From IMG/VR virus record IMGVR_UViG_2850808358_000014: DNA of 48,456 bases; one strand, 5' to 3'. Shown here one piece after another: positions 1,417-48,456 of the stretch (positions are counted from its first letter, which is position 1; each line of letters opens with the position of its first letter). Made by a program: the position numbers and the translations under genes. Under the pieces are notes generated by a model. The model was given only the letters and a program-made list of their open reading frames with translations. It made no database searches and was not told where the DNA came from. This DNA comes from a virus. Lineage: Duplodnaviria; Heunggongvirae; Uroviricota; Caudoviricetes.

Positions 1417-1570
1417 TACTACGAAACGGTAATTTTTTCTCTGCGTGAGAGTGGGCGCGGTGTCCGGCTTGTTCGTTGTTCGTGGCTAACCACTCCCCCC
1501 CATACCGAATTTTTTTCCGGTTAACCTTTAATCAGGCTGGTGGGCTTTACATACCCTTGATCACGGTAAT

Positions 1571-1739
1571 GATGATTCAGGTACGCATCTTTCCACCAAT
1601 GGTGGAAAAGCCCACAGCAGGCCGCCCAGCCTCCCCCAATGGGGGATTGTGGAAGAATCAACGGGTTAGGCCTTAATGGGCTGCGTCACCATGTTGGTGA
1701 TTCAGGTGCGCACCTTTCCCCCTGTGGGGTAAAAGCTCC
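1571..1739. repeat. two ~43-bp direct repeats about 125 bp apart, each with an internal hairpin
   Basis: GATGATTCAGGTACGCATCTTTCCACCAATGGTGGAAAAGC versus GGTGATTCAGGTGCGCACCTTTCCCCCTGTGGGGTAAAAGC; the stems CCACC/GGTGG and CCCC/GGGG differ by compensatory changes. Confidence 0.5.
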
Positions 1740-1782
1740 AACCGTAACGATGTTCGTTATGGTCAACGGTTAAACCGTCTCT

Positions 1783-1820
1783 TTGTCACTGTGTGTCACT
1801 GCTTGTCACTCTCCGTCACG
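1783..1820. repeat. four tandem TGTCAC-type repeats
   Basis: TTGTCACTG TGTGTCACTG CTTGTCACTC TCCGTCACG read directly. Confidence 0.45.
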
Positions 1821-2071
1821 ATTGGGCGTGGTCATTATGACCATTCCCAAAAACCCCATATTCGTGGTTTTTCTGTGTCGGGGCTATTCTGCTGTTGCCG
1901 TGCTGGTGGATATTCTCCGGTATGCGGCTCCCCATATCGGCATCAGGCCCACCAGCGTGAAGCGTTTTTCATTTTTCGCGGGTATAAAAAATCGATGGGG
2001 CTAGCAGTCCGGAAGAGGTCAGGGCACAGAGATTTGACCCGCCCCTCCCTGTGCATTAGCACAATAAGTGA

Positions 2072-2095
2072 CCGAAGGCGGAATTCCGCCCTCGG
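2072..2095. repeat. GC-rich near-perfect palindrome CCGAAGGCGGAATTCCGCCCTCGG
   Basis: Inverted repeat with one mismatch; no flanking T-run, so not a clear terminator. Confidence 0.4.
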
Positions 2096-2189
2096 TACTT
2101 ACATATGAGAAACGATATTTCTTCCACCGATACCCTTTATTTGGGTATCGCGAGTAAGCCCCAAAATCTGGGTGTTACTCTTACTACCC

Positions 2190-2272
2190 AAACTACGGGT
2201 AGTTTCCGTAGTTTCATAGTCGAGTTGCAGATCTGCAACTCGCCACCAGTTGCTAAGTGCATTTTTGCACTT
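2190..2272. promoter_or_regulatory. cluster of three palindromes 3' of the HTH gene (candidate protein-binding or packaging sites)
   Basis: AAACTACGG-N7-CCGTAGTTT; perfect 20-bp GAGTTGCAGATCTGCAACTC; AAGTGCA-TTTT-TGCACTT. Confidence 0.4.
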
Positions 2273-2289
2273 TCGGTAATATCAACCAG

Positions 2290-2674
2290 TTACCGCCGTA
2301 AGTGCTCCGGCTTCCTCCACTGGTAAGTATTTTTCGCGCTCTCCCTCCGTTGTTGAGAACGGCGACGATATGCCAGCAACTCAAGGACTCTTGTTCGTAT
2401 GTTGCGCATATCCACGCCGTTAAGCTCAATACCGTCACGGCGCATCACCTCAGCCACCACACGCGCGTAATTTTCAGCGGTGACGCTGTCCGGCTGCGTG
2501 GCCACCTGTTTGCCTGTTGCCTGACAGATTCCGGTAATACGGCGGATTACTTTCAGTAGTTCGGCGTCGGTCATGGTTATGGTTTCCATAGTGATGGGGG
2601 AACAATTTCTGTAATCTGCGAAGCTGGCGATCGGTCAGACTCAAATGCCTGGCAACTTCAGTCTGAGTAGCCAC
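2290..2674 (-). CDS. small HTH DNA-binding protein, reading frame apparently disrupted
   Basis: GTG-start ORF with SD GAGGTG (N-terminus MATQTEVARHLSLTDRQLRRL, HTH-like) overlaps a 99-aa ORF in another frame; the first frame ends in a His/Arg-rich tail. Confidence 0.45.
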
Positions 2675-2749
2675 TGTTCACCTCGCCCAAAAATCTCCCC
2701 TCATGCGTTTTAAACATGCATCTTGCGAACAACTTTATGAAACGCGGCA

Positions 2750-2850
2750 TATATGTCCGGTTTGAGTGTTCAATTTTTGCGCATGTCCGGTTCGCAGAAA
2801 GCGCATTTCTATATTTTTCAAATGGTTAACCTTCAGAGAAACCGGACATG
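2750..2850 (-). promoter_or_regulatory. promoter/operator region upstream of the HTH gene with three ATGTCCGGTT repeats
   Basis: Two direct copies and one inverted copy between the terminator at about 2940 and the gene start at 2674. Confidence 0.4.
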
Positions 2851-2932
2851 GTTTCCGAAAAATTTTCATAAATAGTGAAATTCTGCGCCGCTCCCGCCCC
2901 GTGGCAGGCCACCCCACCGGAAGGACCCGCAA

Positions 2933-2962
2933 AAAAAAGCCGGATTTCTCCGGCCTTTTCTC
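2933..2962 (-). terminator. rho-independent terminator after the 137-aa gene
   Basis: On the minus strand, GCCGGA-loop-TCCGGC hairpin followed by a run of 8 U. Confidence 0.6.
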
Positions 2963-3374
2963 AGATGGTTTTCAGTATGCGATCGATTTCGCCGTCATCA
3001 CCCTGATATCTGCCATCGTATGCCATGCCAGGGCTTACGGCCTGCGGGCTGTGCATGTCCATAAAGTTTTCAAAGGCTGCGGTAAGCTCCGGCGCAACCT
3101 TCGGGCGTTCCTGCTCTATGGTCATGTTCAGGATTTCCCGGGCATTATCGACGCTAATACATGGCACGTTTGCCATTGCACGTAACAGCGGCTGATAGTC
3201 GTCAGATTCATGAAGCGCCATAATCGCATCAGTGCGCGGCTTGTCCTGCTCTTCCAGTTTGTTAAGTTGATATATAGCCTCGTAGGTTGATAAACCTCTG
3301 TCCGCCATTGCCCGCGCTTCGGCTTTAAATTTACTCGCCAGCGGTAGCGCCATGATAGCTTCATTGATTGCCAT
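2961..3374 (-). CDS. hypothetical protein, 137 aa, last gene of the capsid operon
   Basis: Intact ORF directly downstream of the gpD-like gene and followed by a terminator; no family recognised. Confidence 0.6.
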   Translation of the reverse strand: MAINEAIMALPLASKFKAEARAMADRGLSTYEAIYQLNKLEEQDKPRTDAIMALHESDDYQPLLRAMANVPCISVDNAREILNMTIEQERPKVAPELTAAFENFMDMHSPQAVSPGMAYDGRYQGDDGEIDRILKTI

Positions 3375-3386
3375 CGTTCCCCCTGC

Positions 3387-3676
3387 TTATCGCACCAGTG
3401 GCTGAACGGATACGCCAGAACCCGCAAAAGCGGCGCATTTTTTCGCGTCGGTGTCGACGCTCTCGGGCCAGTTAACGGCGGCGATATTAAATATCCCCGT
3501 CTTGTAACACTGTGCTGATTTCTGCTTTGACGTGTCCACGGGTACGCCGTCAGATAAACAGCCTTGCCAGATTCCTGACCATCCCACGCCTTAAACTCGC
3601 CATTGTCCGCCAGCATCAGCGGAAAAATGTACCAGCGTCGTGGCAACCTGCTGTGTGCCTGCATATAACTCAACAT
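3387..3676 (-). pseudogene. lambda gpD-like head decoration protein, frameshifted
   Basis: Two overlapping ORF fragments; joined they read ...EFKAWDGQESGKAVYLTAYP|VDTSKQ...KKCAAFAGSGVSV, which resembles the lambda gpD core (KLVAWDG...KKRTAFAGTAISIV); the break is at a C run near 3541. Confidence 0.6.
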
Positions 3677-3700
3677 ATGGAGTGCCCATAGAATCTCCCG

Positions 3701-4756
3701 TTAACCAATTTTCACAGTAACAAATTTGCGGATATCTGCCGGAACCGGCTGCGGTGCGCTGTGCGTCTGCACGTACTCAATCGCCGGATCGCCGCTCTCA
3801 ATCCAGTTTTTCGGGTAGTACATGTTTTGCGTTGCGCCCGTTCTTACCGCTTCCGGATCCATAATCGCGCCATAGGCCACCAGACCTTTATTGCTGGTGT
3901 TGCCCAGGACAAGCAAATCAGGCTCAAGGAAATATTTTTCGGTGCCGTCGCTGTCGGTGTATTTGCCGGAATAGACGATAAGGGCCAGATCACCCAGATA
4001 GCCTTTAAAGCTCACCACTTCGCCCAGGTTTTTACACGCCAGCTCTGCGGCGGATTCTGAACCACGGGAAAGATCGTACAGCTCGCGGAATTTTTTAAAG
4101 CTACGTAAGGTGCGCCATACGTCAGCGCCCATAATCATGACGTTGGCGGGGCAGCTGGCCTGTTCGGCGTATAGCTCGATGTCATCTGTCGGATCATGCG
4201 TCTCTTTATTCTGCTCAGACCATTTTTTTCCTGGCCCCTGATGGACAATGCAGTTTGCCGGCATATTCCAGTCGATTTCATAGCGTTCTATGCCTTCGCC
4301 TTCAATGATGTTTTTTCCGGTCGTGACCGCATTCACTGCCAGCCATTCCACACGCGCTTTAATGGCGTTTATCTGGCGGCGCATGTTGCCAGTAATGAGG
4401 CGCATACGTCGCCAGGTGGGGTCGTTAAGCAGTGCCGGATCTTCTCCAGCCATGCGCATGATGGTTTTTGATGGATCGATTTCGTGTTTGGGTTTCATGT
4501 AGCCAGGGCGGATAGTGCTTGTTTCGTACCCTTTATCACGCTGAACCTGGCTACCCACCACAGGCGAACAAAACGCCGACATGGTGACTTCTTCAATGTC
4601 CAGGGTATCCAGCATGACATCTTGTGTGTTGAAGGTTGCTACTTTCGGGAAAAACAGCGTGGTAAACAGCGGACTGAATTTAAATTCCGGGATATCCCCG
4701 CGATTCAGGTACGCGAAAAGCTGGTTAGTGTTAAGTGCCGTTGCTTTGTCTGCCAT
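3701..4756 (-). CDS. lambda gpE-like major capsid protein, 351 aa
   Basis: Collinear similarity to lambda E as recalled (PGYMKPKHE, DPTDDIE, KGYLGD, YPKNW motifs) and near-identical length. Confidence 0.85.
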   Translation of the reverse strand: MADKATALNTNQLFAYLNRGDIPEFKFSPLFTTLFFPKVATFNTQDVMLDTLDIEEVTMSAFCSPVVGSQVQRDKGYETSTIRPGYMKPKHEIDPSKTIMRMAGEDPALLNDPTWRRMRLITGNMRRQINAIKARVEWLAVNAVTTGKNIIEGEGIERYEIDWNMPANCIVHQGPGKKWSEQNKETHDPTDDIELYAEQASCPANVMIMGADVWRTLRSFKKFRELYDLSRGSESAAELACKNLGEVVSFKGYLGDLALIVYSGKYTDSDGTEKYFLEPDLLVLGNTSNKGLVAYGAIMDPEAVRTGATQNMYYPKNWIESGDPAIEYVQTHSAPQPVPADIRKFVTVKIG

Positions 4757-4962
4757 TATTCACCCTCATGAGTCTGATTCATGCCAAGCGCCGCACGTAA
4801 ATAGGCGCGTACCTGCCAGCCTGTTGACGGCTCAACCATCGCCAGCGGATCAAGTCCTGCCGCAATGCCCGCTTTTACGTTCTGCTGGTGGCGTTCCTTG
4901 AGCGCCTCCACGATATCGGGGCTTATGTAAACTGTCACCCCGCCTTTTTTCTCTTCTGTCAT
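4756..4962 (-). CDS. hypothetical protein, 68 aa, translationally coupled to the capsid gene
   Basis: Its stop overlaps the capsid ATG (TAATG); no family recognised. Confidence 0.5.
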   Translation of the reverse strand: MTEEKKGGVTVYISPDIVEALKERHQQNVKAGIAAGLDPLAMVEPSTGWQVRAYLRAALGMNQTHEGE

Positions 4963-4991
4963 AGTCAGAAATTCCTTTTCGACTTAAAAAA

Positions 4992-5019
4992 TTATAACTG
5001 GATGTACATCCAGTTATAA
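4992..5019. promoter_or_regulatory. perfect ~27-bp palindrome TTATAACTGGATGTACATCCAGTTATAA upstream of the capsid operon
   Basis: Perfect dyad with a CTGG-N8-CCAG core about 30 bp upstream of the 68-aa gene; candidate operator. Confidence 0.45.
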
Positions 5020-5139
5020 TTATAATCATAGTTGCATTTTGTGCAATAGAATTGAGTTGCATTGCAAATTATGAAATGATTTACGGCAACAGTAGTCACC
5101 ATGCTGTTAACCTCGTAAGCAAAAGCCCGATAAGCTTCC

Positions 5140-5196
5140 TCCTGTACTTATCGGGCTTTTTTTGGGTACAAAAAGCCGGATTTTCTCCGGCCTGTG
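5140..5196. terminator. pair of hairpin plus T-run terminators (bidirectional)
   Basis: CCCGATAAG...CTTATCGGG followed by T7 on plus; GCCGGA-TTTTC-TCCGGC followed by U-run on minus, almost identical to the hairpin near 2940. Confidence 0.5.
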
Positions 5197-5199
5197 CGT

Positions 5200-5610
5200 T
5201 CAGAACGGAATATCATCACCGTAGGGGTCATCGTCTCCCGCTGGTGGCTGATTACCCTGTGTGCCTGTGGTTTTGCGTCTGTTCCCGCCAGGGCGTGCCG
5301 CTCGGGCACTGATTACGCTGTCGGCAATAACCTGATAACCCTGCCGCGTTTCCCCGTTCTGTCCGGTCCACTGGCTGACCTGCATCGTGCCGGATACGCT
5401 GGCAACGTCGCCTTTTTGATGTTTAGCCAGGAAGTCGGCCTGCTTACCAAATGCCATCACCGATAGCCATAACGTCGCCTGTCCGTCCTGTGCCTGGCTG
5501 CATGGCAGCGATACCGCCATACGCGCCAGCGTCATCGGTGTGCCCTTGCTGGTCTGTTTTACCTGCGGGTCGTCCACCAACCGTCCGTAAGCTGCTATCT
5601 GTGCTGTCAT
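5200..5610 (-). CDS. ssb: single-stranded DNA-binding protein (short phage/plasmid type)
   Basis: OB-fold-like N-terminus, Gly/Gln-rich linker and acidic C-terminal tail ending DDDPYGDDIPF. Confidence 0.85.
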   Translation of the reverse strand: MTAQIAAYGRLVDDPQVKQTSKGTPMTLARMAVSLPCSQAQDGQATLWLSVMAFGKQADFLAKHQKGDVASVSGTMQVSQWTGQNGETRQGYQVIADSVISARAARPGGNRRKTTGTQGNQPPAGDDDPYGDDIPF

Positions 5611-5885
5611 GATTCCACCTCTCCGGTTTTAACGTTGATGGTTGTTACCTGTTCCGCTTCGGCAATCTCCCGTTCTGTCAGCGTGGCAAAGTTTGCCGCT
5701 GCTGTGGTCATGAATGCGCTTATCAGGTCGGGATGTTCCTTCGCGTATCCTTCCCCCGCGTGGCGGTCTATCGTTCTGATTGCCACCTTTAAAGCGTGCT
5801 CTGTCATGTCTAACGCGCGATATTTCGGTTCTGTTCTGTCTCTGCGTTTTTTGAGTGATTTATTAAATTTTCCTGAAGTGTGCAT
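5607..5885 (-). CDS. hypothetical protein (92-aa ORF; true start may be internal)
   Basis: ORF between the origin and ssb; no family recognised. Confidence 0.45.
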   Translation of the reverse strand: MHTSGKFNKSLKKRRDRTEPKYRALDMTEHALKVAIRTIDRHAGEGYAKEHPDLISAFMTTAAANFATLTEREIAEAEQVTTINVKTGEVES

Positions 5886-5929
5886 GTTTATTTTTACCCC
5901 CTCGTTTAAAAAGTTTTGAGTTGTGCCTC

Positions 5930-6160
5930 CCCTTGTCTACCTTATCTACCTTGCTGGCCCTCATGCCAGTAATGGCGCGGCTTTCAGCGGGTAGAGTGTT
6001 TTTATCCACTATCTACCCCGTGTCTACCTCCCTGTCTGATTCAGGTAAAATCAGGTAGAGAGGGTAGATAGTGGGTAGACAGTAAAAAAAAGCTGTCTAC
6101 CTAACTTAATGTACTGAATTAAATGTATTTTCCTTTGCTCAGGTAGACAGCAATTACAAA
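5930..6160. repeat. replication origin: about 10 iterons of consensus YNTCTACC in both orientations plus an AT-rich stretch
   Basis: TTGTCTACC, TTATCTACC, CTATCTACC, GTGTCTACC, CTGTCTACC and inverted GGTAGAG/GGTAGAT/GGTAGAC copies directly 3' of the primase gene. Confidence 0.6.
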
Positions 6161-6163
6161 AAA

Positions 6164-7917
6164 TTATAAAAACGCGTCGCACTCGTCTGTTGTTATTGCG
6201 TTAGTCTGCGTTACCCCCTTAACTTTCCGCGTAATATATTCATGTCCGTAAACTTTTGCGGCAGGCTTCATAGCCTTGCCAAAGTCATTTACGTTTAGCG
6301 GTTTGCTCCTGCCTGCGTATGCCATAAACGCCAGATAGACGCGGTAAAGGCTGTTCCTGGTCGTGTACTTCACTGAATCACCACCGCCACCCATCATCAG
6401 GCCGCGCGCTTCCTCCAGAAAATTCAGGAACTGGCAAAACTCAATAACCGGATCCGTCTGTTGCTTTATTGCCAGTGCTTCATCACCGTCACGCTGTTCC
6501 AGTAGTAAAGCCCGTGCCTTCTCAGGGTCGGTAAAGTTCGCCAGCAATCGGCGGATAATAACGGGGATTTCAGCCGCAATCTTTTCCGGTAGCTCCCTGT
6601 CTTTTTCGGCCTCACTGACGATATTGTCGAAACGGAAAATCACGCGACGACGTGCCACACCTCCGGCCCGTTCGGTGAATATCATCGGGTTGTTGTCGGT
6701 CGCCAGCACCACCGCCCTGATTACCGCCGTGAAACGCTTTTCATATTTCGGGTTAATTTCCACGGGTCGCCGCCCGTGATTTTCTTGATGCCCGTTCCTT
6801 CGCCTGTATATTTCGGCTGGTCAGCCAGGACGATAAGACGACTCCCGACAACCTGCGCACGTCCACCAGCATCATCAAGCGATGTCATTTCAGCGCTTAC
6901 CGTGTTCTGTTTCCCTGCCAGAAGGCTGGCTATGTGTGTGAATGTACTTTTACCGCTCCCGCCGTCTCCGGTGGCCTCAATAAACATCTGCCAGTCGTAC
7001 CGGTTCGCCATAATCATGTAAAGCGCGGCACATATGCGCATCATCTTGCGCGGGTCTTTTCCGGCTGCGTGATCAAGCCATTTATGAAAGTTTGGCGCGT
7101 TGTCGCGGATATTCTCCCCTGGTGCTGGTGGCGTGTACTCAATGCCGTTGTGCGTGGTGATCCAGTTCTCCGGCGTGTGCGGGGAAAATTCCCCCGTTTT
7201 CAGGTTAAGCACACCATTAGTGAACGGTAGCAAATCACTGGACGGCTCGCCCATCGGGTCAGCAATAACTTTTAACGCTTCAACGGCGTTATTAATTGCC
7301 CGCTTGCTGAATGTGGCCCCGTGTTCTGAATAAACCGCCACCATTTCGCGGCTCAGTTCCATTGTGCTGACCGGACACCATATCCCGCCGCGCCATACGT
7401 GAACGATTTCACTTTCCGGATGCACACAAACGCCATCAAATCGACCAGCAAGCATCTGTGCGCGCTCACTGTCTGCCATCTGCGAAAGTTGCGCCTTTTG
7501 CTTTACCGGAAGCTCAATGACCAGACCATCAGAAAGATTCTGGCGTTCACGGGCCAGATATTCGCGCCAGTTCTGCACCTCCTGGCCGTGCATACCCTCA
7601 AGATAAAAATTTGCATCCTGTACACCTGCCGCCGCCAGCTTCTGACCAATCGCCTTGATCATTACAGGCTCAAGATGTCCGGCTCTGTATATGCGTGCTG
7701 ATTTTCTGCCATCCGGCACAATTTGCAGATTATCCAGTTCGGATAGCTGCTGCTCTCCAAGCCACACAGGAGGCTCATTATCTCCGGCTGTACGCGCGTC
7801 ATGTTCCTGCCACTGTTTCGCGTGTGCCCAGGCATCACTACCCGCAAAGATAATTACCTCTGTGTCTTTGTGTTTTATTCCGCGTGGCTGTTTTTTTACG
7901 TTCGGTGCCAGTTTCAT
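6164..7917 (-). pseudogene. P4-family primase/helicase, frameshifted
   Basis: 398-aa fragment with toprim-like N-terminus and Walker A GDGGSGKST, plus a 199-aa fragment in another frame; the join ...ITGGDP|VEINPKYEK falls at a G/C run near 6765. Confidence 0.75.
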
Positions 7918-8213
7918 TTTTTACCCCTGAATACGTTAAGCATCTTTTTTATTTCCTGAATATTGGCGCGTGCTTTCTCCCTGCTGGTGGGCACGTTACG
8001 CGGTACGGCCTGCACAAGAGAAAAATCACGGTCGAACTGATAAACAGGCATCACGCAATCATATTCGTAGCCTTCACGACGGTAGGTTACGCGCCGTTCC
8101 TCCACGCCCTTAATTATTACCGTGCCGCCGTACTTATCGCGGTAAATATCCCCGCGCATGAATTTAGTGCGAGTTTTGCCGCTGGCAGTTAAGCCAGGAT
8201 ATTTAAGTTTCAT
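7914..8213 (-). CDS. hypothetical protein, 99 aa
   Basis: Intact ORF whose stop overlaps the primase start; no family recognised. Confidence 0.5.
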   Translation of the reverse strand: MKLKYPGLTASGKTRTKFMRGDIYRDKYGGTVIIKGVEERRVTYRREGYEYDCVMPVYQFDRDFSLVQAVPRNVPTSREKARANIQEIKKMLNVFRGKK

Positions 8214-8218
8214 TATTT

Positions 8219-8452
8219 TTATTCTCCGGTGTGGGGCGCTTTATACTGGTCGTGTAATGTCTCTATTTCCTGCAACTCATTTATTACAGGCTCAAGAAGC
8301 GTTATTAATGCCGTGACAATCCTTGATTTCTGTTTATCACGCTCATTATCGCCAAATGTTTCCAGACACATTTGCAATATTTCCAACATATTTTCACTGT
8401 GAGAAAGTGCAAGAAATGCGCGGTCTGTTATTTCAATGTAAATATCACGCAT
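8219..8452 (-). CDS. hypothetical protein, 77 aa (AT-rich)
   Basis: Intact ORF abutting the IS110-family left end. Confidence 0.5.
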   Translation of the reverse strand: MRDIYIEITDRAFLALSHSENMLEILQMCLETFGDNERDKQKSRIVTALITLLEPVINELQEIETLHDQYKAPHTGE

Positions 8453-8459
8453 AACCCCG

Positions 8460-45649: not shown

Positions 45650-45830
45650 TGTTTTTGTTTTTCGTATTTTCAATGAAACAAAAGCAATTTTTTACTATCT
45701 TTCGCGTTTCATTGATTAACGACTAAAATTTGCGCTACAGGCTTGCAAGCCCCACCAAATCTAATCCCATCAGATCCCGAATAATCCAATGTCCTCCCGG
45801 TTTTTTTCGTACTTCAAGTGAATCAATACA
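45650..45830. other. Mu left end attL (MuA binding sites L1-L3)
   Basis: Reverse complement matches the Mu left-end sequence TGTATTGATTCACTTGAAGTACGAAAAAAACCGGGAGGACATTGG... as recalled. Confidence 0.85.
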
Positions 45831-45835
45831 GCCAG
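45831..45835. repeat. GCCAG target-site duplication, copy 2
   Basis: Identical to 8883-8887. Confidence 0.8.
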
Positions 45836-46830
45836 CTACCATCGGTGCGTTACCTGTCGCCGTTGCCCGCTCAGAAGGAGTCCTTGTCGGATACCTCCCT
45901 GGACTGGCCATGCGCCGCATAGCCGACTTACACGCCGGTGAAGCTAAAACTGATGCTCGTGACGCTGCCATCATTGCCGAAGCTGCCCGTACCCTGCCTC
46001 ACGCGCTACGCACGCTGAAACTGGCTGACGAGCAAATCGCCGAACTCTCCATGCTCTGCGGCTTCGATGATGATCTTGCCGCACAGACAACGCAGGCCAG
46101 CAACCGTATCCGCGGCCTTCTGACCCAGATACATCCGGCACTGGAGCGCGTTCTCGGTCCGAGACTTGAGCACCCGGCGGTACTCGATCTTCTCCAGCGA
46201 TATCCCTCACCAGAAAAACTCGCTTCGCTGGGTGAGAAGAAGCTGGCAGCCCAGCTCTGCAAACTTGCGCCTCGTCTGGGTAAACGCCTTGCAGCAGACA
46301 TAGCTCAGGCACTGGCCGAACAAACCGTCGTCGTTCCCGGCACGAATGCCGCTGCCGTAGTACTGCCACGTCTGGCACTCCAGCTCATCACGCTGCGTAA
46401 GCAAAGAGACGAGGTGGCGCTTGAGGTAGAACAGCGAGTTCTTGCTCACCCTCTTTACCCGGTCCTGACCAGTATGCCCGGAGTCGGTGTCAGGACCGCA
46501 GCCAGACTCCTCACCGAGGTCGCCTGCCGCGCCTTCGCCTCTGCCGCACATCTCGCTGCTTATGCTGGCCTTGCGCCGGTAACTCGGCGATCCGGCTCGT
46601 CAATACGCGGTGAGCATCTCTCGCGACGGGGTAATAAAGCTCTCAAACGGGCGTTGTTCCTGTTGGCCTTCGCCGCGCTCAGGGATCCGCTCTCCAGGGC
46701 TTACTACACCCGCAAAATGAGTCAGGGAAAACGACACAATCAGGCGCTTATCGCCCTGGCGAGACGACGCTGCGACGTTCTGTTCGCCATGATGCGCGAC
46801 GGGACTTTTTATACCCCGCAGGGGTCATAA
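45831..46830 (+). pseudogene. IS110-family transposase, C-terminal fragment (continues 8686-8887)
   Basis: In frame with the N-terminal fragment once Mu and one TSD copy are removed; about 60% GC. Confidence 0.85.
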
Positions 46831-46843
46831 CATGCTTGACAAC

Positions 46844-47065
46844 TTAATAGGGGCACCCCCCATTTTCACAATCAGCAACAAGAATATTTTTAGCGTCATT
46901 CAGCGACCGCGTTGCGATGTATCGGATACATTCCAGGGCGAACAATGTGTATTCTTCCCGTTCTTCCTTTCGTGCAAGCTCTGCTGTGCATTCAATATCA
47001 ATAAGCGCGTGCATCAGCGTAGTGAGTGCGGCGGCGGCTGCGTCCGGTGTGGTTTTATTGTGCAT
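46844..47065 (-). CDS. hypothetical protein, 73 aa
   Basis: Start overlaps the stop of the upstream gene (ATGCACAATAA); 3' end abuts the IS right end. Confidence 0.5.
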   Translation of the reverse strand: MHNKTTPDAAAAALTTLMHALIDIECTAELARKEEREEYTLFALECIRYIATRSLNDAKNILVADCENGGCPY

Positions 47066-47228
47066 AGGTTTCCCCCTGGCGAATACGGGCGACAAAAATC
47101 AGATGTGCGTGCGGCAGCTGCGCGCGGGCTTCGCGTTCAGTGGCTGCGGTAACGGTGAATATTGCAATGCTGTCTGTCAGGCACTGCATAAAGCGCCAGA
47201 CAAAGTAAGGGCGTGCGGATACAGCCAT
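47055..47228 (-). CDS. small protein, tandem paralog A (possibly Icd-like)
   Basis: 57 aa with WRF and TEREAR...FVARIRQG motifs; SD AAGGAG-N9-ATG. Confidence 0.5.
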   Translation of the reverse strand: MAVSARPYFVWRFMQCLTDSIAIFTVTAATEREARAQLPHAHLIFVARIRQGETYAQ

Positions 47229-47522
47229 GTGAAAGGCTCCTTTGCTTGATGTAAGGAGTCTCGCCAGCACGCTGTCAAACATGGTGGCGGGACGTAACAG
47301 GGTTGACAGACTGGCAGCAAAGAAACCAGCGAGCGCAAAGGCTCCCCCGTTACGCCCCGCCATAATGCGGGTATGGGTAGGTTTACGGACACAAAAAAAC
47401 CGCATATCGGAATGTAAGCGGCTGTCCGCTTTGCTATTCAGGCTGTCAAACCCGGTCGCCATGTGGGCGACGGGGGAAGAATACAGCCCCACGGTAATTT
47501 TTTGCAAGTTGTTTTTACGCAT
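47229..47522 (-). CDS. hypothetical protein reading in frame into paralog A (no stop as given)
   Basis: Start overlaps the paralog B stop (ATGCGTAA); may be a separate gene merged by a frame error. Confidence 0.4.
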
Positions 47523-47703
47523 GGCCAACCCCCTGACGAATACGGGCCGCGAATACAGCAACACAACCGGACGGGCAATGGTTACGCGCTTCGCGTTCAG
47601 TCCAGGCGGTGACGTGGATGATTTGGGACTCTGACGCACCAAAGGCGATAAAGCGCCAGAGAAAGGCGGTTTGAGAATGTACAAGGGTAGGGGTAGTAGC
47701 CAT
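47515..47703 (-). CDS. small protein, tandem paralog B (possibly Icd-like)
   Basis: 62 aa with WRF and TEREAR...FAARIRQG motifs; same SD spacing as paralog A. Confidence 0.5.
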   Translation of the reverse strand: MATTPTLVHSQTAFLWRFIAFGASESQIIHVTAWTEREARNHCPSGCVAVFAARIRQGVGHA

Positions 47704-47795
47704 GTCGGCAGCCTCCTTGATTGATGGAATGTAACCACCGCCGGAGGTCCTAAGCTCGCTGGCGGTGGACTGTACAGGGTTAGGACTACTGGCAA

Positions 47796-48053
47796 TCAAG
47801 GGAACCAGCCTACCCGAAGGTAGCCCCATACAGCCCACCATTGTATAGGTGTGCGTGTGCGTCGATACAAAAAAGACGCGTGCGGCGTCTGTATCGCCTC
47901 GATTGTCAGCGGGGTCCTAATCCCGGCACCCGTTTTATAAGGTGCACGCGAATCATAGCCTTGGCTGGCAGTGGCGATCAACTGGTTTTTCATACCCGCT
48001 TTATTCAGGTTGTGCGAGTCCCGCCCTTGCAGGTGTGTGGTATGATTTAACAT
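47796..48053 (-). CDS. hypothetical protein, 85 aa, first gene of the leftward operon
   Basis: Internal Met of a longer tracked ORF; lies just downstream of the operator region. Confidence 0.5.
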   Translation of the reverse strand: MLNHTTHLQGRDSHNLNKAGMKNQLIATASQGYDSRAPYKTGAGIRTPLTIEAIQTPHASFLYRRTRTPIQWWAVWGYLRVGWFP

Positions 48054-48054
48054 A

Positions 48055-48258
48055 GCTACCTCGATACTGTTGCTATCGTTGGTGGTTAGACGCCCTGCAT
48101 GTGTTGCGAGCACTGCGGGGCGTTGCTTAATTTGAGTGACAAAACTCAAACTGTGCGCACAGATTAAAATCATGTGTGCGCACATGTCAATACTTAACAT
48201 CTCATTTTTTTTGCTGTATTGTGTGCGCCCATAAAGTCCATTTAAGTGAGGTGCATCA
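48055..48258. promoter_or_regulatory. divergent promoter/operator region with TGTGCGCACA palindromes
   Basis: CTGTGCGCACAG, CATGTGTGCGCACATG and a half-site TGTGTGCGC between the divergent genes. Confidence 0.5.
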
Positions 48259-48456
48259 ATGTCTAGCGGTAACACAAACAACAAATCAGCAAAGAAAAAT
48301 ATTCGATTCCCACATGAGCTTATAGATGGGGTTTATGCCAGCGTTGAACAAGAAAAATTAACTAATCCTAGTGCTAATTTTTCCGCATGGGTCTTAGATG
48401 CCTGTGGACGCAAATTAAAATATGAACAGCGCAGGAAGGCCAAAGAATCAGAATAA
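48259..48456 (+). CDS. small putative DNA-binding regulator, 65 aa
   Basis: Basic N-terminus; divergent from the operon across the palindromic operators; no family confidently recognised. Confidence 0.5.
   Translation: MSSGNTNNKSAKKNIRFPHELIDGVYASVEQEKLTNPSANFSAWVLDACGRKLKYEQRRKAKESE

Follow-up and report, generated by a model that had tools for sequence, protein, structure and literature searches.

LexA boxes are carried by mobile elements such as colicin operons, phage 186 (tum) and CTXphi, and GIL01 is a further mobile element with a LexA box. Among satellites, operon I of the SaPIs, the packaging operon of the staphylococcal phage-inducible chromosomal islands (PICIs), has been reported to be controlled by LexA (Ubeda et al. 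2007). In Escherichia coli, the published work on the PICI EcCICFT073 of strain CFT073 found that alpA of this island is induced by a helper, and not by SOS or mitomycin C alone. The c1503 gene of EcCICFT073, which we take to be the gene for Rpp (redirecting phage packaging), has been reported to block lambda; Rpp redirects the terminase of the helper and blocks helper reproduction.

The locus described here lies in a 48,456-nucleotide stretch of DNA from a viral sequence record (IMG/VR IMGVR_UViG_2850808358_000014), the whole of which we refer to as the window. Positions 1511-8453 of the window are 91% identical to EcCICFT073 with the same order of genes, and the element has the make-up of an EcCICFT073-type PICI: int, alpA, pri-rep, ssb, capsid-like, decoration-like and Rpp genes (perC being present in some copies), a length of ~10 kb, and no tail or lysis genes. 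This copy of the island is broken by IS4 (1-1049, at the 3' end of the island), by a complete Mu/D108-like prophage (~8.9-45.8 kb, with mom at 9003-9728 and gin at 9920-10513) and, after the prophage, by ISEc20 (~45830-46880), and the island resumes at 47070-48456 with Icd-like and YlcI genes. The primase/replicase, a protein of 584 aa in CFT073, is split into overlapping ORFs of 199 aa (6164-6763) and 398 aa (6721-7917), which reads as a frameshift or a sequencing error; thus, this copy of the island may not be able to replicate. A 16-nt inverted repeat (6003-6018 and 6062-6077, 94% complementary and 43 nt apart) closely follows the primase gene; replication origins of PICIs have been reported at this location.

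The genes around the palindrome are on the minus strand, in the order pri-rep (two ORFs), a 92-aa gene, ssb, two terminators, the palindrome, a 68-aa gene, the capsid gene, a decoration-like gene and a 137-aa gene. The features on which the analysis turns are as follows.

5200-5610, minus strand: ssb, which precedes the terminators
5121-5191, unstranded: two hairpin terminators between ssb and the palindrome (sequence, inverted-repeat and terminator scans)
5032-5067, unstranded: a pair of TTGCA...TGCAA inverted repeats, at 5032-5046 and at 5057-5067, covering the -35 and sequence upstream of it (sequence and relatives)
5041-5046, minus strand: predicted -35 hexamer TTGCAC, separated by 16 nt from the -10 (read from the sequence)
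5019-5024, minus strand: predicted -10 hexamer TATAAT, overlapping the outer arm of the palindrome (read from the sequence)
5011-5014, minus strand: putative transcription start zone, ~5-8 nt past the -10 and inside the LexA-box candidate (placed from the position of the -10)
4990-5021, unstranded: perfect 32-bp palindrome AATTATAACTGGATGTACATCCAGTTATAATT (inverted-repeat scan)
4996-5015, unstranded: 20-bp LexA-box candidate AACTGGATGTACATCCAGTT, with its CTG-N10-CAG core at 4998-5013 (matrix score)
4986-4991, minus strand: run of six T on the coding strand, directly past the 28-bp palindrome, resembling an intrinsic terminator together with the hairpin (terminator scan)
4972-4977, minus strand: Shine-Dalgarno sequence AAGGAA of the 68-aa gene, kept in relatives (read from the sequence)
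4756-4962, minus strand: first gene of the operon, 68-aa protein, phrog_3255 (PHROG match)
3701-4756, minus strand: gene for an E-like major capsid protein, homologue of EcCICFT073 c1499 (Phage_cap_E)
2961-3374, minus strand: 137-aa gene, phrog_1999, at the position of EcCICFT073 c1503; putatively Rpp-like and putatively in the operon (position and PHROG)

The stop codon of the 68-aa ORF overlaps the start of the Phage_cap_E major capsid gene, and no Pfam family was found for the 68-aa protein. The 137-aa Rpp-like gene is presumably in the same operon as the capsid gene. At the position of the decoration protein, the ORF at 3128-3676 encodes 182 aa (its CFT073 homologue has 111 aa), overlaps the next gene (2961-3374) and has a weak match to a head-decoration PHROG (E = 0.001). 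In CFT073 and in other copies (for example, L002 8756-9004) perC is located between ssb and the packaging promoter; it is absent here (window 5100-5200), where ssb is followed directly by the two terminators. The palindrome occurs with or without an adjacent perC, and the presence of perC therefore does not track with the site. The promoter region was found in 591 of 5,426 complete E. coli genomes (~11%), and a megablast search of the phage collection with this region gave no match.

The sequence at 4992-5019, TTATAACTGGATGTACATCCAGTTATAA, is 28 bp long and identical to its own reverse complement, and the perfect dyad extends to 32 bp at 4990-5021 (AATTATAACTGGATGT/ACATCCAGTTATAATT). A first-pass annotation of this DNA had placed a perfect dyad of ~27 bp at 4992-5019; the dyad is indeed perfect, but the length was understated. 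At 32 bp it is the top-ranking and longest perfect inverted repeat of the whole 48-kb window, and by our own arithmetic a perfect 32-bp palindrome is expected in random sequence ~1e-5 times per 48 kb. The CTGG-N8-CCAG core that the annotation had singled out is present at 4998-5013 as part of CTGGAT-N4-ATCCAG and is single copy, there being no second copy within one mismatch anywhere in the window. Note that each arm of the dyad projects 6 bp past the 20-bp stretch read by LexA.

Followed 5' to 3' along the coding strand, the region consists of TTGCAC, 16 nt, TATAAT, four bases, AACTGGATGTACATCCAGTT, ATAATTTTTT, the Shine-Dalgarno sequence and ATG. The candidate box thus starts 4 bp after the conserved TATAAT and spans the expected start of transcription, both promoter and start being predicted, and 30 bp separate the palindrome from the ATG of the 68-aa gene (4962, minus strand). 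Among 44 distinct related promoters, TATAAT is invariant in 43 (a distant group has TAAAAT), the TTGC of the predicted -35 is invariant in all, and CTG is immediately preceded by a purine in 42; the distance from core to ATG is constant in 87 of 88 related loci. A promoter scan with a stricter consensus rule did not report this promoter because the -35 matches at only three of six positions. Upstream, 5121-5160 is a bidirectional hairpin terminator with a T run on each strand, and another hairpin, after ssb, has its stem at 5175-5191 and a T run at 5170-5174 on the minus strand. These terminators appear to isolate the packaging operon from the replication module, and the operon would thus need a promoter of its own, which makes the promoter prediction reasonable. 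The annotation had put the palindrome in the promoter region of the 68-aa/capsid operon, behind terminators, and its position is as described, the promoter being predicted. The TTGCA...TGCAA repeats are kept in three kinds of PICI packaging promoter, namely those with the palindrome, those with the 68-aa gene and no palindrome, and those of another capsid module (L163 7330-7370); they look like the motif of a second, older shared regulator.

To score the site against LexA, as the first-pass annotation had proposed, we derived a symmetrised weight matrix from the sequences of 18 documented E. coli LexA boxes and their flanks (PMC3009722 Table 4). On this matrix AACTGGATGTACATCCAGTT scores 22.2 bits, as compared with 4.4-29 bits for the documented boxes in leave-one-out scoring, and outscores 12 of the 18 real boxes when these are left out in turn and 9 of the 18 on the full matrix. 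The exact p for 22.2 bits is 2.8e-8 per position, which corresponds to 0.0014 matches expected per window and 0.14 per 5 Mb; the runner-up in the window has 10 bits, 12 bits below AACTGGATGTACATCCAGTT. When ruvA, cho and dinG, the three boxes of CTGG type, were removed from the training set, the score was still 21.2 bits. Moreover, an index of the heterology type, recomputed on these sites rather than taken from the published Lewis table, was 6.3 for the candidate and 0.3-9.3 for the 18 boxes. The sequence at 4998-5013, CTGGATGTACATCCAG, is CTG-N10-CAG with an A/T-rich centre, as in the core of E. coli-type LexA boxes, and its similarity to LexA boxes falls within the range of the documented ones.

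The annotation had offered a degenerate SOS box as one of its two readings, on the grounds that CTGG departs from CTGT. An SOS box it may well be, with a score midway among those of proven E. coli boxes; degenerate it is not, since CTG-N10-CAG is intact and the proven boxes of ruvA and cho also have G after CTG (PMC3009722 Table 4). The ruvAB box CGCTGGATATCTATCCAGCA has six-base half-sites, CTGGAT/ATCCAG, identical to those of the candidate (PMC3009722), and the CTGG...CCAG core is common to the candidate, the ruvAB box and the cho box CACTGGATAGATAACCAGCA. At 22 bits, as against 18.6-20.5 bits for the ruvAB and cho boxes, the candidate scores similarly or better; its central four bases are GTAC/GAAC where the two comparison boxes, as listed, have ATCT, and the flanks differ too. 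Judged by its sequence, the site would be an ordinary, fairly strong SOS box.

We collected ~150 related loci by way of the 68-aa protein, the core sequence and the primase; the footprinting across genera was based on IMG/VR and metagenome contigs, and a profile search of genome contigs with the alignment of the 68-aa protein found nothing but an unrelated locus of Gelidibacter. The main group has the core CTGGATG-(AA/TT/TA)-CATCCAG. None of the 44 distinct related promoters departs from CTG, CAG or either A-T step; the inner GGATG/CATCC is almost invariant, and the central dinucleotide is AA, TT or TA. Variation in the 20-mer is limited to positions 1, 2, 9, 10, 11 and 15, and the seven kinds of substitution found there cost a mean of 0.65 bits on the LexA matrix (-0.65, as compared with -3.6 for random changes), fall at positions of low information or go towards the LexA consensus, as three of them do. 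Substitutions thus avoid the positions of high information (P ~0.002), a value to be read in light of the close kinship of the sequences and their lack of independence. One variant tells the two kinds of constraint apart: a C-to-A change (CATACAG) raises the LexA score by 1.4 bits and weakens the hairpin from -7.5 to -2.0 kcal/mol, which argues for protein recognition of the core over RNA structure. Because the box-bearing relatives are ~90% identical across the whole promoter, so that variants are not independent, conservation has little power here, and the support that it lends to LexA is suggestive rather than strong. In relatives with a 68-aa gene of 57-65% identity, and in PICIs with another capsid module, no LexA-like box was found although the promoter architecture is kept. 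LexA control would thus not be essential to this type of operon and, given that the distant relatives keep the hexamers and the TTGCA...TGCAA repeats, the palindrome is a lineage-specific addition to an older promoter.

PICIs that have the primase in common carry other strong LexA-like boxes, unrelated in sequence, in the interval between int and alpA, which is outside the window. Among 71 PICI contigs (761 kb), LexA matches of at least 14 bits number 45 where ~2 are expected, and all are either at the packaging promoter or in the int-alpA interval. The int-alpA boxes, identified as matrix matches, include these.

L154 1241-1260: LexA-like box in the int-alpA interval
L001 19084-19103: LexA-like box in the int-alpA interval
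L002 14656-14675: LexA-like box in the int-alpA interval

In L154, AACTGTACAAAAAACCAGTA (19.6 bits) spans the stop codon of int, and ~117 bp beyond AACTGTACAAAAAACCAGTA are boxes in which GTG replaces CTG. That two unrelated sequences share only the LexA consensus argues for LexA rather than a private repressor. Because alpA is not induced by SOS alone, the int-alpA boxes, if functional, would need to act together with the helper signal, and for the same reason a good matrix score in this element is no guarantee of simple SOS induction.

We considered the possibility that the palindrome acts mainly as RNA. Transcribed from the minus strand, it would give a 14-bp hairpin followed by six U, that is, an intrinsic terminator or insulator against transcripts of the replication module, and its inner part would form a 5'-terminal stem-loop on the operon mRNA, a role that could coexist with LexA binding. 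The terminator scan of the minus strand does report a terminator-like structure with 14 pairs, a loop of 4 and a T run, the RNA folds at -15 kcal/mol (z = -5.7), and all 16 variants of arms and core fold at -8.6 kcal/mol or better. Moreover, in the outer arms both partners of a pair have been substituted (C-G to U-A and U-A to C-G) with G.U intermediates, including a path from U-A through U.G to C-G, and symmetry is kept in three variants; this compensatory change is something for which LexA does not account. Pairing is preserved in 92.7% of cells, and the observed covariation score was reached in 3 of 500 shuffles, but this statistic is within what related sequences give without any structure. 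As in Rho-independent terminators, the hairpin is followed directly by a T run on the coding strand; unlike them, it is situated past a conserved -10, with a ribosome-binding site 25 nt further on, rather than at the end of a gene, and its stem is A+T-rich with only three G-C pairs. With two canonical G+C-rich terminators 100-200 bp upstream, a third would be redundant. A transcript from the predicted promoter starts inside the left arm and retains only a stem of -7.5 kcal/mol that ends 6 nt before the U run; the pair 12-33 is unpaired in half of the 16 variants, the CATACAG variants weaken the stem without compensation, and the T run (4986-4991) persists in relatives that have no palindrome. 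An RNA element as the main function is therefore unlikely, if still the strongest of the alternatives to LexA.

Less likely again is that a dimeric regulator other than LexA, whether of satellite, helper-phage or host origin, has the palindrome as its operator, the likeness to a LexA box being incidental. Such an operator would fit a dyad of 28-32 bp, longer than a LexA box, the near-invariance of the inner GGATG/CATCC, and the occurrence of box and 68-aa gene together in 21 of 21 PICIs with the shared primase, both being absent in 42 others. The site is, however, single copy in the window, and a 22-bit match to LexA would arise by chance with p ~3e-8. Nor does the 68-aa protein behave as a partner of the dyad: homologues of 57-65% identity stand behind promoters that lack it, and a protein of 66% identity stands behind an unchanged box. 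We entertained the idea that this protein is a ribbon-helix-helix autorepressor, on account of its strand-helix-helix pattern, and found it unsupported, given that the protein has no Pfam family and that its AlphaFold model, of moderate confidence (pLDDT 73), has no PDB fold match at E < 2. With a site in single copy that is indifferent to a neighbouring perC, and a 68-aa protein of no DNA-binding family or fold, the other reading in the first-pass annotation, an operator for an element-encoded repressor, finds no support. Least probable is a palindrome without function that arose from, or was completed by, template switching in a quasi-palindrome and has persisted as a passenger in a conserved promoter. 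Perfect palindromes are known to arise by mutation through hairpin-templated correction, and the whole region is ~90% conserved, so that conservation alone proves little; set against this are the p-value of the LexA match, the placement at the start site, the direction of the substitutions and the further LexA-like boxes in related PICIs. Three other identities were discarded: a cos site (no lambda-like cosN was found near the palindrome, and the published cos sites are described separately), a known RNA family (Rfam gave only sub-threshold noise) and an FNR-like site. The FNR consensus is TTGAT-N4-ATCAA; TGGAT-N4-ATCCA agrees with it at 8 of 10 positions, and such matches are expected many times per window by chance. 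(Note that the same 18-mer occurs in an unrelated phage contig, L120 5845-5905, which is equivalent to L123 on the opposite strand, as part of TACTGGATGAACATCCAGTA. This sequence has 23.4 bits on the LexA matrix and is 12 bp from a perfect 24-bp palindrome, CTCACTGTGAACGTTCACAGTGAG, of the form CTGT-N8-ACAG, which has only 9.5 bits. Because it lies inside the linker of a ParB-like/DNA-methyltransferase ORF, and given the low score of the second palindrome, we regard it as a curiosity rather than as independent support.)

The explanation that we favour, and hold to be probable, is that the palindrome is a LexA operator lying across the start of a sigma-70 promoter (TTGCAC-16 nt-TATAAT) that drives the packaging and interference operon of an EcCICFT073-type PICI. 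The site, its score, its placement with respect to the conserved hexamers and the terminators, and its pattern of conservation were established by computation; from these we infer that the promoter fires as predicted, that LexA binds and that expression depends on SOS. The operon so controlled would comprise the 68-aa, capsid-like, decoration-like and Rpp-like genes. As long as the cell is undamaged, a dimer of LexA at 4996-5015 would stand in the way of RNA polymerase. DNA damage, which induces lambdoid helper prophages, also leads RecA to trigger the self-cleavage of LexA, and the operon would then come on just when a helper begins its production of capsids. Outside the 20 bp of LexA, the outer arms may have a further function as a hairpin in RNA.

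A broader proposal, which we put forward tentatively and rate somewhat below an even chance, is a system with two keys. The helper would turn on AlpA and with it excision and replication, and LexA would hold down the operon for capsid, decoration protein and Rpp, and perhaps int-alpA too, such that sabotage of the helper and packaging of the island would be licensed in SOS only; the arrangement would be convergent with SaPI operon I, and the palindrome would double as an insulating terminator. If LexA does gate the operon, then interference and high-frequency transfer of the island would depend on DNA damage (for example, by quinolones or mitomycin) as well as on a helper being present. It would also explain why a promoter with a near-consensus -10 is silent in the resident island, and would constitute a second, independent case of satellites borrowing LexA for a packaging module. 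Conceptually, such an operon would be an extension of known SOS biology. The searchable literature on E. coli PICIs makes no mention of a LexA site at this promoter or of LexA in connection with EcCICFT073, and the literature searched holds no prior description of the exact core sequence. A look for expression data on homologues of c1499-c1503 under SOS induction likewise came back empty. LexA control of a satellite packaging operon is already known from SaPI operon I, and its occurrence in an EcCICFT073-type PICI would probably be new.

The candidate differs from the ruvAB and cho boxes in that it resides on a mobile satellite and forms part of a longer, 32-bp perfect dyad. With the colicin operons, phage 186 tum, CTXphi and GIL01 it would have in common that the element borrows the SOS repressor of the host to time its expression with DNA damage; in those cases LexA controls the release of a toxin or a lysis-lysogeny switch, whereas its targets here would be the structural and packaging-redirection genes of a satellite. 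SaPI operon I and the operon described here are both satellite operons for packaging and interference that have a promoter of their own (here predicted) and a host LexA site (here a candidate), set apart from the master regulator that the helper triggers. They differ in host, in LexA consensus (a Gram-positive motif in the SaPIs), in gene content (terS/cpm/pti as opposed to E-like capsid, decoration and Rpp) and in the master regulator, which is the repressor Stl in the SaPIs and the activator AlpA here. The likeness between the two would thus be one of convergence and not of homology.
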